From positions 11,226,276-11,290,275 of the forward strand of contig CM082594.2 in NCBI GenBank assembly GCA_040954595.2: a DNA stretch of 64,000 nucleotides, in the 5' to 3' direction. Position 1 is the stretch's first letter; the number at the start of each line of letters is the position of its first letter. The translations under genes were made by a program, and so were the position numbers. Below are positions 2,552-50,887 of the stretch, piece after piece. The notes beneath the pieces were generated by a model that was not told the DNA's origin, did not search any database, and was given only the letters and a program-made list of their open reading frames with translations. Source of the DNA: Balanoglossus misakiensis. Lineage: Eukaryota > Animalia > Hemichordata.

Positions 2552-2659
2552 TCACATGCTTCAATCAAACAGGTGTCACGTACTACACTTCTGTCTGTAC
2601 ATTTGCAGGACAGTCCCGAGGGCTCGTGAGAAAACAACAAGACTGAACACAAACCAAAA

Positions 2660-2800
2660 ATGAAGACTAGAATGTGTGTGCTCTTCTTTATAATTTCAAC
2701 CTTGTACACTGTTTTTGCCGTTCCTGTACATTCAAATGAAGAAGACGATCTGGAGAACAGGATTGCAGTGATTGTCAGAGAAGTTTTGAACATTCTTCAG
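2660..2800 (+). CDS. Gene A (amidated neuropeptide precursor, AstA-like) coding exon 1: signal peptide and acidic pro-region
   Basis: AAAAATGA start context. Translates MKTRMCVLFFIISTLYTVFA|VPVHSNEEDDLENRIAVIVREVLNILQ (basic n-region, hydrophobic core, VFA cleavage site). Phase-0 donor CAG|GTGGGT at 2801. Confidence 0.85.
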
Positions 2801-2998
2801 GTGGGTATCTTTAGTCTTTACTTATCTTAAAGTGATTCGGGGAGACAAACGATGACAAGTCAGCCCGATGCATAAATTCATTAACATAGATAGATAATAA
2901 ATTCATGCACTGATACGTGCATAGATATATAAGTTGGTACATGCCACGTGTTCACATACAAGTTTTAATTTCAGTTGTTCATTTATGTCTATATATAG

Positions 2999-3041
2999 GA
3001 AAAACAAAGACTAGCCGTCCTTGAAAGTGGAGTTACGGGAG
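2999..3041 (+). CDS. Gene A coding exon 2 (pro-region)
   Basis: Acceptor ...atgtctatatatag|GAA; 43 nt encoding EKQRLAVLESGVTG plus 1 nt; consensus donor G|GTGAGT. Phases 0 and 1 join exons 1 and 3 in frame. Confidence 0.8.
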
Positions 3042-3234
3042 GTGAGTGTAAATGAAGCTTAAAAGATGATTGAAAAAAAATGTTTTGTTAATTGCTTCTG
3101 TAAAATCAGCAGCAACATTGCCGTTTTATTTGGGTTTACTTATTTTAACACAATGTAGGATTTTAATATAAGTATGCACTTCGTTCTATGTCATTGTGTT
3201 TGTATACAAAGATCCTTTTTGACTTTTCTTTCAG

Positions 3235-3335
3235 ATGGTGAATACGTGCGTAATGGTGTTACAAGAGACGCTGAAGGGAAACGAGGCCCAGACCATGCAA
3301 AGACTTATTACCACTTTGGAGTTGGGAGGCGTTAG
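3235..3335 (+). CDS. Gene A coding exon 3: mature peptide GPDHAKTYYHFGV-amide
   Basis: Strong acceptor ttttgacttttctttcag|. Reads DGEYVRNGVTRDAEG-KR-GPDHAKTYYHFGV-G-RR-stop (TAG 3333-3335). Spliced CDS is 141+43+101=285 nt, 94 aa. Confidence 0.85.
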
Positions 3336-4976
3336 GTAATTATGTCATTAACATATATCCAACGCTGCTATTTGCAGAAAGGAAAGAGTACAGCTCTAGG
3401 TAGAAGTATGCAGAGCCTAGCTCAGCTAAACTGGCAACATTTTGGGTGGGCAGACCACTAGACATGACAATCTCCATAAAATCAAATACTGCAGTTTTGA
3501 TTTACGACACACTGAATATACTGCGCGTATACTGCTAATGGCGCCCACAAAATTGTAATTGCAAAAGCGAAATTAAGCTCTGATTTGAAATGAAGTTAAA
3601 AATGATCGCCTTTGCAATGCATAATAAAATGACACGAACAGACTCTCATCGCTGATATGATTGAATAAACTAGCTCGAAAACTTGTATGGCATATACCCT
3701 GGAGATTTAAGTGGAGCCATATGAATTTATTGCAAGCTATTACTGGAGCTTGATCCTCTTATGTGAAATGTTGTTTGTATAAATCGATCATTAAGAGTAC
3801 TACTGAGAACGTATATTACATAATAACATTATCAAGAGATCATAAGGTTTAATTATCGAGCTACAGGCAATACTGGTCACCAATCTTGGAAACGTCCTAC
3901 ACAACAATTTGCATGCGTTAATTTCTCTCGCCCACTAGAGGTTGAATTCTCTCTGGGATGAAGTGACGAACAACACAGGACTACATGTTACCTCTGAAAT
4001 ATTTCCCCTCGTCACAGAAATTCATCCACAGTGTCTAAATAAATCGTATAAGCTTCTAACTAGTGAGAATCTAAACACTTCTTTTCGGTTTCGGTAGACG
4101 TGAGAAAAATAATCTCTAATTGGTCGCCTGTTGGATTGTAGAATATACGAGTTATCCTACAGCCAGATTTCTTTCTAATTTATTTGAATATTTGATCTAT
4201 ACAGTGTTTCGTGGTGTCCCCAAAGACCTTTCATAATTGACAAGTATTGCCACACTCACTAGGGAGTATTTGCGCTTGTCACCAGTTGTGTGTCAGGATA
4301 TACTTCACCAAGTGCAATTTTTACAAACCAAATATATTGCTTGTCAACAGTGCTGGGTATTTTTAATTCGCGTGAACAGAACTTTCGAAAATGTCAAGTA
4401 CGGTCGGGGAAAAATAAGAAAACGGAAACTAGCGTCAAATTCGTTTGAAGAAATGTTGTCTCTCTCTGCATCTTGCTTCCGCGGGATGCGTTCCTATTTT
4501 CCCTTGCCATTCCCTAATGAAATATGTGGCAGAACACACACTGACATGTGAATGAGAACCTGCTTCACAAGATGCCTTCTGGCAACGTCTTTTGATTATT
4601 GTTAACTTTATGATAAAAATCAGCCAACCGCTGACATGAATACTAATATTGAAAGAGGAATACTTGTTCCTGTCTGAATAAAGAACTTTGCCCGACAGCC
4701 TATTCATGGTGTTCTATGTCATGTCTCGCATTCTCGTTGCCTGGAGATACTTTTACGGCAAAGGCGTCTATTGGCAAATGTTTTCAACTGAGCCAAGTTG
4801 GCTCCAAATTTTTATTGTTTCTCGTGAACACACAGCAAAAGTAAGTAGACCAATTTATCTGGGAAGAATGGAACCTACAAAAATCCGTAGTAGTCACACA
4901 TACATGTAGGTTTGTTAAATTGTGCACTAGTTACTGGTAGATTGATAATTTCTCTCTCTCTCTCTTTCTCATGTAG

Positions 4977-15820: not shown

Positions 15821-17270
15821 GCATTCGCGCATTCGACATGTTATTCGAATTAATTACCATCATGCAGAGTCGCCACAGAATCATGTTAATCGAAAGAGTA
15901 AAAATTATGAAAAGCGAAAATGTTGACCTTGGCCCCACCAACACAGGAAGGCTGAGGGTCCACATTCCTTTCTGATGTGACTAGGTTTTTTGTCCTGTAT
16001 GATTTTTTCGTTTCATATAATTGGTGCAGAATATTATTGTTTTTTCTTTTGGAAAAAGTGAGAATAGAGTCTGCATGTTTAGAGGCTTGACGGAGAAAAT
16101 TTCCTGTCAGACACCCAGAACTTTGTTGTAGACAAACGTCTGCTCACAAACTTTAAAGGAAAAACAACCTCCCCTGACTGATGATACATTCTGTCCGAAT
16201 TTTGTTTGAATAGTCGGTCATGCCCATGATAATGGATATTAACCCAAATCCTGACATTTCAGCAGGGTTGGGTATATTCATCGCTTCTGCATTAGAAAGC
16301 AGTGATCTTATCGATTGCAAGAACAGCGGAACAACACAGTTCTTATCTTGTGAAACACCCAAAGGCTGATTTAACATGGGTTAGAGATCACTGAACTAGG
16401 GATTACTGATGTAATAACTGTGTTTGTAACCATGGATTCCTCGTCTTTTCAGGTGAGACTAGAAAAAACCCATGGCCTTGGAAGTTTTTTCTCTCAGGGT
16501 TGACAAGTTGCTGATCATGCGTAGACTGTTGCCGTTACATGCCACGGGGCATAACTGAGCCAAGTTCAGTGGTCCAGTGGTCCTCACGTCATTTGCAATA
16601 ACTTCTGCTTTAATTTCGAACTGTTGGTAGAGCGGTATTTGTTTAATATTCCGGTTTTCATATCGTTCATATTCCATTCTGGGTTCAACGGGTCGGTGTA
16701 AAGGCAGATAATCAAGTTATTATCAAGGCCAGGCCTACGCCTACGGAGTACCCCGTCTCTCTTATGTCCATGATCCAATCCAACTATCTACCCCACCCAT
16801 GTTTGCATTTTTGCTGCATTTTTGTTCACTCCTATCACTCCTATAGCCTCTATCAATTAATAAAACATCAGATCCTACAAGGTGAAATCATATACCACAC
16901 TATCTTTCCCTTGGAACTGGATTACTTCATTCGAACATATAACTTGCCTCTGAAGAATCATGGAATTTTCGCACAAAATATCACGTTCTGGGTTATTGTA
17001 ATTGAACGCAGGCTTCAGAGTAATTTTATTCATACGTTATAATATAACTGGAGAGCTTGCAAGCTGTACATTACACTGAATAAACATTAGCATGTGAGGA
17101 AACTGGTATTGTATTACAATAATTACATACTTATTCTATCTTACCGGCCCCGGGATGTGATTAAGGAGGGGAAACTGATATGTTCTCATCAGAAGCCCCT
17201 TTGAAATGTGCTTTCGAAGTCCTTGTAGATGTGGAAGTGAGCTTTTTAAGTAGTATGTCTTCGGACTTCA

Positions 17271-31300: not shown

Positions 31301-31849
31301 CGTTAAAACACAGCTCATCAAGGACAGATTGTTTGCACAGTCCAAGCAAGTGCTTTCAAGATCTTAATGGCAATTCCGGCTTTTAACGCAAAATTACTTC
31401 CTCAATTCTGGAGTATGTGAGGGTGTAGTTTTTCACGCGCACTCACGGCAACCAGCGCTTTGCAGAACTCAATCCTTATTTGTCCATTATGCTCATTATC
31501 TTTCCAATGTGAGAAAAAATGATTTTTATTTTTCTCTGATGTGCAAGAAATGGTTAATGTTACCGAGACCACTTTGCAGCAACTAAATGCGGCATCTATC
31601 AATACTTGTCAGATAGTACCTTCATGTACTCACCATCATATGGGTCAAATATATCACAAGTGTATGTTAAAATATACTTCTGTGATTTCTAGGTGTATAA
31701 AAGGAGGTTACATTGTATAGATGCATATTTGAAGGGTTTCCAACTGGAAATCCTGCATGTAAATGGTGATACCTGATATTCTACGCTTTTCTTCTACAGC
31801 TTAAACAACAGCATTTTATACCTTAAGACACACAAACTCCTTGCTCAAG

Positions 31850-32122
31850 ATGCGCCAAGTAACAATGCTTCTGGCCGGCTTCTTTGCCGTGTGCCTGCTC
31901 GTACAGACCGTGAGTGGAACTGCAGCCAGGTCGGGGAAACTCCATTCATACCAGAACTCTGGATTCAGTATGTTCGGCAAGAGGACCCCAGATTACCCAG
32001 CTCCAGCGATGGAGATTGAAGAGCTGCTCACAAGATCTATTGGAAACCTCTTAAGCCTCAAGAAACTCTTCGACGACGTTATAAATGCAAACAGCATGCC
32101 AGAAAAAGATATTCAAGAATAA
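31850..32122 (+). CDS. Gene B: amidated neuropeptide precursor (SALMFamide/kisspeptin-like), 90 aa, single coding exon 31800-32127
   Basis: True ATG is at 31850 (CAAGATGC); the ORF track starts at an upstream TTG. MRQVTMLLAGFFAVCLLVQTVSG (signal) | TAARSGKLHSYQNSGFSMF-G-KR | acidic C-terminal pro-peptide TPDYPAPAMEIEELLTRSIGNLLSLKKLFDDVINANSMPEKDIQE. Flanked by an acceptor at 31798-99 and donor AAG|GTATTG at 32128. Confidence 0.92.
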   Translation: MRQVTMLLAGFFAVCLLVQTVSGTAARSGKLHSYQNSGFSMFGKRTPDYPAPAMEIEELLTRSIGNLLSLKKLFDDVINANSMPEKDIQE

Positions 32123-45102: not shown

Positions 45103-45115
45103 ATGGCTAAAACAG
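45103..45115 (+). CDS. Gene C coding exon 1 (MAKT plus 1 nt)
   Basis: GAAGATGG Kozak context; donor CAG|GTACGT at 45116; phase 1 matches the exon 2 frame (G+AC = Asp). Confidence 0.7.
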
Positions 45116-45317
45116 GTACGTACTTTAACAGGAATTTGACATTTTCGACGTTTCTCAAAACTTTGGCAAGGGCAGAACTTGCAATTAGCCTCCATGTAAA
45201 CGTCTTCACACATTTATACAAACCGGATACATATTTGCTATGTTCATGTAAAGACCAAATGTCATTTTAAAAATGTGGACACACTCCAATGTAATATTGT
45301 TCCATTTTCCCTGGCAG

Positions 45318-45566
45318 ACTGTCACCACATACTCCTGTTTATAGTGCTACAACTTATAATACTACATGCAGCTACGGCGTTTCTATACAGAAATCAAGTC
45401 ATACGACTGGGCAAGAAGTCCCCACCATACTCGTACCAACCAAAGAGCCCCTTTACTTTCTTCGACACCGATGGAGACGGACAATTATCACAAGACGAAT
45501 ATCAACGTGTCCCACAATTTAAACTCACGGCAATGTTAGATTCATTTCAGGATGCAGACCTAGACG
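45318..45566 (+). CDS. Gene C coding exon 2: signal peptide, candidate amidated decapeptide, EF-hand 1 and start of EF-hand 2
   Basis: Acceptor ccattttccctggcag|. Reads (D)CHHILLFIVLQLIILHAATA|FLYRNQVIRL-G-KK-SPPYSYQPKSPFTFF-DTDGDGQLSQDE-YQRVPQFKLTAMLDSFQDA-DLD(G). Donor G|GTATGT at 45567. Confidence 0.9.
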
Positions 45567-46194
45567 GTATGTGTTGTGTTTTTAATAATGATTTTCTTAC
45601 ACCATCTGGAAAAAAAACCCCAGCTCATTCTTATACCGGTACATTATATTGATATTTGAGGTCAGGGTATATAATTCATTTGCCTGCATGAAAAAAAGTT
45701 AAACTTGTTCATACTTTCTCTTAGAAGACAATCAATCAGTATGCGCATGTAGCTGCGGATACCAAAAGCACAAAGGAATATCTTGAAATATGTAACCAAC
45801 CCTGATCAATTTTGCCTGTTTGTAAATTTGATGGCACATCATTGTTCCACAGAATCATCGATCTTTTATTGATTTTCTGTACAGCTGCCTTATAGGTTAT
45901 TAAATCTGGTCTCTTCTATGCATCTCCGGAATAATCAATAGCAAGATTACTGTCACACTACAATGGGATATTAACATATGGCTTTAAAAGGTGCTCAGGT
46001 TGACAAAATTGATTCTCGAGGAAGCACTAGCGTTTAATCTTACGACAGCTATAACCCTGTATTAGATATTCTAAAGCAGAACCTTTGTTGAAAATTTTAT
46101 AGTACCTAATATACACCCACCATTTTTGAACCCACCTGTGTAGCCGAATGTGCCAGATTTCTCATTCTGAAAACTAAACATTCATAAGTTACTT

Positions 46195-50795: not shown

Positions 50796-50887
50796 GTGAC
50801 GGACTTGTCAATACCTTGGAGTTCTTTTCAAAGATGGCCAAAGTTCGATACGCGGTGCAAGAGGACACGCAGAATATTTCCAGCTAG
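50796..50887 (+). CDS. Gene C coding exon 3: completes EF-hand 2
   Basis: Acceptor ctttgtttcatttcgattacag|. Phase 1 gives (G)DGLVNTLE-FFSKMAKVRYAVQEDTQNISS-stop, completing the loop DLDGDGLVNTLE. AATAAA at 50924-50929. Spliced CDS is 13+249+92=354 nt, 117 aa. Confidence 0.88.

Follow-up and report, generated by a model that had tools for sequence, protein, structure and literature searches.

A three-exon acorn worm gene, found in a 64,000-nucleotide stretch of Balanoglossus misakiensis DNA (hereafter the window), is by its sequence very likely a real, unannotated-looking hemichordate neuropeptide gene, and we somewhat favor the reading that it yields a single-copy amidated 13-mer that would act on a receptor of the allatostatin A (AstA)/galanin clade. 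Acorn worm AstA/galanin-type receptors lack a reported ligand, for which the 13-mer is a likely candidate. AST-AR genes have been reported from hemichordates, chordates having lost them (PMC4489612, PMC9263205). A third paper describes galanin/AstA, leucokinin, ETH, QRFP, PTH and NMU/CAPA receptors in ambulacraria and reports that matching precursors were not found in ophiuroids (PMC5627052). Ambulacrarian AstA/galanin-type receptors have been reported, yet brittle-star ligand searches failed. With a named hemichordate peptide, one synthetic product and a small set of cloned receptors would be enough to put the question of the AstA/galanin ligand to the test, and the sequence provides a query for seeking echinoderm and amphioxus counterparts.

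Joining the three coding exons by their coordinates (141 + 43 + 101 = 285 nt) gives one open frame that encodes a 94-residue precursor plus stop codon. The first-pass annotation had proposed just such a model, with intron phases 0 and 1 and the peptide at the position given in Table 1, and the joined sequence bears it out. It had also remarked that the exons are missing from the track of open reading frames (ORFs), which is true of the list of ORFs of at least 100 aa. Both introns are GT-AG. Exon 2 carries the gene model because skipping it causes exon 3 to be read in another frame, with loss of the 13-mer. The gap from 2801 to 3234 could accommodate 45 open middle exons bounded by AG and GT, among which the one chosen here is best on splice signals alone, and its donor is the sole AG/GTGAGT in the 128 kb formed by both strands of the window. 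A compatible phase says little by itself, given that the required 3n+1 length is present in 20 of the 45 candidates. The acceptors of the two introns have pyrimidine fractions of 0.70 and 0.80, values that can be compared with 3300 YAG sites, 240 of which reach at least 0.70 and 96 at least 0.75. The start ATG has an A at -3 and is one of seven ATGs in the window (third by score) that pass a crude signal-peptide filter.

Judged from the splice signals, the rarity of the motif described below and the start codon filter, the precursor gene is very likely real. The opposite view, that this is a chance chain of exons or an unexpressed relic from which no peptide is made, strikes us as very improbable. 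In its favor, the gene model has no supporting transcript or protein record, and searches with exon 3 returned no protein from Ptychodera flava even though the orthologue of a neighboring EF-hand gene (XP_070536172.1) is in the same collection. However, the exon 3 queries of 32-40 aa have low power, and small three-exon genes are commonly overlooked by annotation. Furthermore, the frame is intact, the consensus donor unique and the acceptors strong, and these features share a span of 680 bp with a predicted signal peptide and an entire cassette for cleavage and amidation.

Table 1. Coordinates of the precursor gene and its predicted features, in window positions.
Feature	Position	Strand	Remarks
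Likely 5' UTR part of first coding exon	2609..2659	+	Inferred; acceptor-like site before it
Coding exon 1	2660..2800	+	47 codons, encoding the predicted signal peptide and an acidic/amphipathic pro-region; donor CAG/GTGGGT in phase 0
Predicted signal peptide	2660..2719	+	Residues 1 to about 20, cleavage after residue 25 being the alternative; from hydropathy and the -3/-1 rule
Coding exon 2	2999..3041	+	43-nt spacer; phase-1 donor GAG/GTGAGT; splice signals rank it first among the 45 possible middle exons
Coding exon 3	3235..3335	+	Carries the peptide cassette and the stop codon
Gly-Lys-Arg	3276..3284	+	Putative convertase cleavage site preceding the 13-mer; its Gly might serve to amidate the end of the spacer
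Mature 13-mer GPDHAKTYYHFGV-amide, predicted	3285..3323	+	From likeness to AstA-type peptides
Gly (amide donor), Arg-Arg, TAG stop	3324..3335	+	Followed by donor-like GTAATT
Candidate polyadenylation signals, two AATAAA hexamers	3623..3669	+	Sequence match

Further exons without coding sequence may flank the gene on either side, since a donor-like TAG/GTAATT falls exactly on the stop codon (3335/3336) and an acceptor-like site, consisting of a pyrimidine tract and CAG at 2606-2608 (pyrimidine fraction 0.70), lies 51 nt ahead of the ATG. An upstream non-coding exon and an intron in the 3' UTR are both possible on these signals; no strong donor was found upstream of 2609. The region upstream of the gene also contains 3.1 copies of a 34-bp unit repeated in tandem (98%; region 2107-2210), the CRE-like half-sites ACGTCA and TGACGT (region 2381-2413) and a TATAAG at 2546.

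The translated product has the features of an amidated neuropeptide precursor. A predicted N-terminal signal peptide, called by the crude methods of hydropathy peak, -3/-1 site and ATG filter, is followed by a 57-residue spacer with 12 acidic residues and then by the cassette KR-GPDHAKTYYHFGV-G-RR-stop. The KR (residues 77-78) and RR (residues 93-94) that flank the peptide and its C-terminal Gly (residue 92) are the only basic pairs in the precursor. By standard neuropeptide processing, the precursor would enter the secretory pathway and be cut by a convertase at both pairs, after which trimming and conversion of Gly92 to an amide would release one amidated 13-mer. PC2 and PAM are expressed in Saccoglossus kowalevskii according to a passage in PMC10508912. 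We found one copy of the peptide in the model and no paralogous exon within the window. The first-pass annotation had additionally raised a second amide ending in RDAE, which the upstream G-KR does make possible; nothing further supports it. The fragment is acidic and without an aromatic residue, and it is more likely the end of the spacer than an amidated peptide.

We compared the frequency of the motif and cassette with 60 order-3 Markov simulations. The pattern [YF]xFG[LIV]G[KR], which was chosen after being seen, occurs once in the six frames of the window against 0.033 expected per window. For the strict form of the cassette, KR..G[KR]R-stop, the count is again one, against 0.12 expected. 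Looser patterns occur at chance levels (G[KR][KR]-stop, 4 against 4.2; loose cassette, 2 against 2.6).

The C-terminus of the 13-mer, Y-H-F-G-V-amide, resembles that of AstA peptides. Canonical AstA peptides end in Y/FxFGL-amide with 4 to over 20 copies per precursor in arthropods, and Y/FxFGL-amides of this type have been reported only from panarthropods (PMC9263205). The 13-mer shares with the arthropod peptides a Tyr at -5, a Phe at -3, a Gly at -2, an aliphatic amidated end and dibasic flanks, so that three of the four fixed positions match. It differs from them in that Val replaces the final Leu, in that there is one copy rather than multiple paracopies, and in that the host is a deuterostome. 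With its terminal Val and single copy, the 13-mer is not a canonical AstA. It does possess the broader AstA/buccalin-type ending, aromatic-x-hydrophobic-G-(L/I/V/F)-amide, as do spiralian sequences annotated as AstA. The initial suggestion that YHFGV-amide is an AstA-type C-terminus in a single C-terminal copy stands. It had been called notable if the host were a deuterostome, and the host is indeed an enteropneust hemichordate close to Ptychodera; a nearby exon that encodes an EF-hand shares 89% identity over 82 aa with an uncharacterized protein of P. flava, its sole match.

The fit is also closer than was realized at first. Among the peptides annotated "allatostatin A" in the PMC8557429 supplement, FGV-amide is the ending in brachiopods and YHVGL-amide that in phoronids; such spiralian labels are the authors' annotations, and a review notes that molecular and functional proof of those orthologies is lacking (PMC9263205). 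In an ungapped, C-anchored comparison the 13-mer is identical to one phoronid AstA copy at 5 of the 10 C-terminal residues, and to a brachiopod copy, whose FGV-amide end is the same, at 4 of 10. Unlike the 13-mer, both come from multi-copy precursors, and the phoronid peptide has a Trp at -7 that is absent here. The score of the phoronid match was reached by 13 of 100000 shuffles (78 of 100000 with the terminal GV fixed) and that of the weak brachiopod match by 318 of 100000 (6413 of 100000 with GV fixed), figures that are optimistic by about a few dozen-fold because both copies were picked after viewing a few dozen. None of 314 other window 10-mers preceding G[KR] reached the phoronid score, the best of these scoring 24 versus 25.

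Such likeness could also arise by convergence. In that case the peptide would be a real but lineage-specific neuropeptide whose receptor belongs to another clade lacking a known ambulacrarian ligand, for example a leucokinin- or tachykinin-type receptor, which we consider unlikely. Short aromatic-rich motifs converge easily, and 40 peptides compared with 30 family motifs (assumed numbers) would give 0.05 to 1.5 chance family fits, the upper value with an assumed aromatic-rich composition. On the other hand, the chance of the AstA motif is low for any one amidated peptide (4e-5 to 1.2e-3, by assumed composition) and the phoronid match extends over half of the ten residues compared. Leucokinin and tachykinin C-terminal motifs fit the 13-mer worse than the AstA motif does, which counts against convergence. 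The possibility draws further support from the absence of any homologue of exon 3 in protein searches, and from the supply of other receptors. Leucokinin, ETH, QRFP, PTH and NMU receptors are likewise among those without ophiuroid ligands in the account cited above, echinoderm tachykinin ligands had been unknown (PMC9400282), and leucokinin-type receptors of S. kowalevskii are listed in the supplement of PMC8557429.

On the favored reading of the 13-mer as an AstA/galanin-clade ligand, likeness to AstA suggests that Y-H-F-G-V-amide would be the receptor-binding end and an AstA/galanin-type GPCR the target. By analogy only, its action might be inhibitory on gut or feeding muscle, inhibition of such muscle being a basal role proposed for AstA/buccalin.

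Vertebrate galanin and spexin have in common Trp2, Thr3, Tyr9, Leu10 and Gly12 (PMC4764904). No sequence conservation is said to exist between the AstA peptides of insects and the galanin/spexin peptides of vertebrates (PMC4489612). Counted from its N-terminal cut, the 13-mer has two of these five residues, Tyr9 and Gly12, and both follow from a YxxG motif plus the length of the peptide; Trp2, Thr3 and Leu10 are present in galanin and spexin but not here. Dibasic flanks are shared as well, and the spexin 14-mer is close in length. Galanin is longer than the 13-mer, and galanin message-associated peptide lies after the galanin peptide while the pro-region here lies before. A possible resemblance between the pro-region helix and galanin message-associated peptide found no support: no Pfam match to it was found in four pieces of exon 1 and none in the Atlas, with the helix spanning the junction of exons 1 and 2. 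Tentatively, the 13-mer may possibly be the first deuterostome AstA-type ligand and a link between the two families, combining a protostome AstA C-terminus with the Tyr9/Gly12 register of galanin/spexin in a single-copy peptide. It would then show how an ancestral peptide with Y-x-x-G gave rise both to the multi-copy AstA peptides and to galanin/spexin with their single copies.

Receptors of the kisspeptin type are closely related to those for AstA and galanin, and the 13-mer might be the ligand of a hemichordate receptor of this type, an assignment we regard as quite unlikely. Hemichordate kisspeptin-type receptors occur in all three clades with their ligands undiscovered (PMC13020265), and FGL is common to AstA and vertebrate kisspeptins (PMC4489612), the latter sharing an F-G-aliphatic core with the 13-mer. 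Another shared trait is the phase-1 intron ahead of the exon that encodes the peptide, present in KP1 and vertebrate kisspeptin genes too. However, the 13-mer ends in FGV-amide without the core Asn, whereas KP1, KP2 and SALMFamide peptides have a C-terminal Phe- or Tyr-amide, and the echinoderm ligands of kisspeptin receptors described in PMC9400282 (in part) end in LxF-, FxF-, GxF- or GxxF-amide. Furthermore, the KP1 genes described have two coding exons, as opposed to the three here, where there is an extra phase-0 intron.

Two echinoderm peptides were considered as relatives and rejected. The sea cucumber KIamide-9, an orphan myoactive peptide (PMC3432112, in part), has a K-T-x-Y core and ends in G-(I/V)-amide, like the 13-mer, but the alignment needs gaps, and its score was reached by 366 of 20000 shuffles but by 5734 of 20000 once the terminal GV was fixed. 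The starfish Arnp24 precursor has a similar layout but yields a two-cysteine peptide.

Homologue searches were carried out with the exons singly, the short queries having the low power already mentioned. A 40-aa stretch with exon 3 gave no candidate homologue among proteins of 71-2000 aa, and the 32-aa exon 3 gave two matches among 1.84 billion representatives, both repetitive unrelated proteins. In Pfam, exon 3 matched nothing at E up to 0.05 or up to 10, the HMMER filters dropping most matches above about 0.1, and exon 1 matched one sub-threshold DUF. Neither exon had a usable match in the Atlas, and none was found in the PDB. The families KCNJ, PPFIA, GOLT, GYS and CMAS, given as syntenic with AstA in the sections available of PMC4489612, were not seen in 148 of the 233 ORFs of the window, which at 64 kb is far too small for such a comparison.

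Strings from the peptide end and the N-terminus had no match among the papers listed from the literature searched, which mostly lacks subscription journals and in which a divergent orthologue would escape; none of the literature matches listed describes an AstA/galanin ligand from a hemichordate. In the supplement of PMC8557429, of which 3.9 million characters were covered, HFGV occurs six times, all in unrelated proteins, and FGVGR does not occur, while FGVGK is found in 24 places, the first two of which are brachiopod AstA. FGVG is absent from the supplements of PMC5627052, PMC6586643, PMC4772807 and PMC9793003 as far as they were available, and occurs three times in that of PMC6188537, where the two occurrences viewed are acoel. 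The string search of the PMC9400282 supplement covered 12 of its 20 files.

The window contains further genes of possible peptidergic nature. A second predicted neuropeptide precursor of 90 aa is encoded by one coding exon at 31850-32122 (+), with an acceptor at 31799. Its signal peptide is followed by a peptide ending in YQNSGFSMF-G-KR. By eye the precursor is like ophiuroid NP27, in which YQTG..F-G-KR comes directly after the signal peptide with an NLL helix behind; NP27 came to light when SIFamide-type peptides were being sought, and its homology is described as unclear. No database homologue of the 31850-32122 precursor was found. From its sequence, it is possible that the product is a hemichordate NP27/SIFamide-type peptide or a ligand of kisspeptin receptors (a Phe-amide of KP2/SALMFamide type).

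Pfam was scanned with 148 of the 233 window ORFs of at least 60 aa and with exons 1 and 3. The single match above a curated cut-off was an EF-hand in the ORF 45200-45649, which belongs to a secreted two-EF-hand protein with a P. flava orthologue (exons at about 45103-45115, 45318-45566 and 50800-50884, +). Right behind the hydrophobic leader of this protein is QVIRL-G-KK, identical in the window and in P. flava, from which a short amidated peptide could be released ahead of the EF-hands. At 15889-16143 (-) there is also a weak match to prepro-orexin over the mature-peptide region (E 0.0066; 16.8 bits versus a cut-off of 22.6). A stop lies just upstream of it, no Gly precedes the basic pair and the number of Cys is just two; sub-threshold matches below E 0.01 arose in 5 of the 150 sequences scanned. 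The prepro-orexin match is likely due to chance, though odd beside two or three peptide genes.
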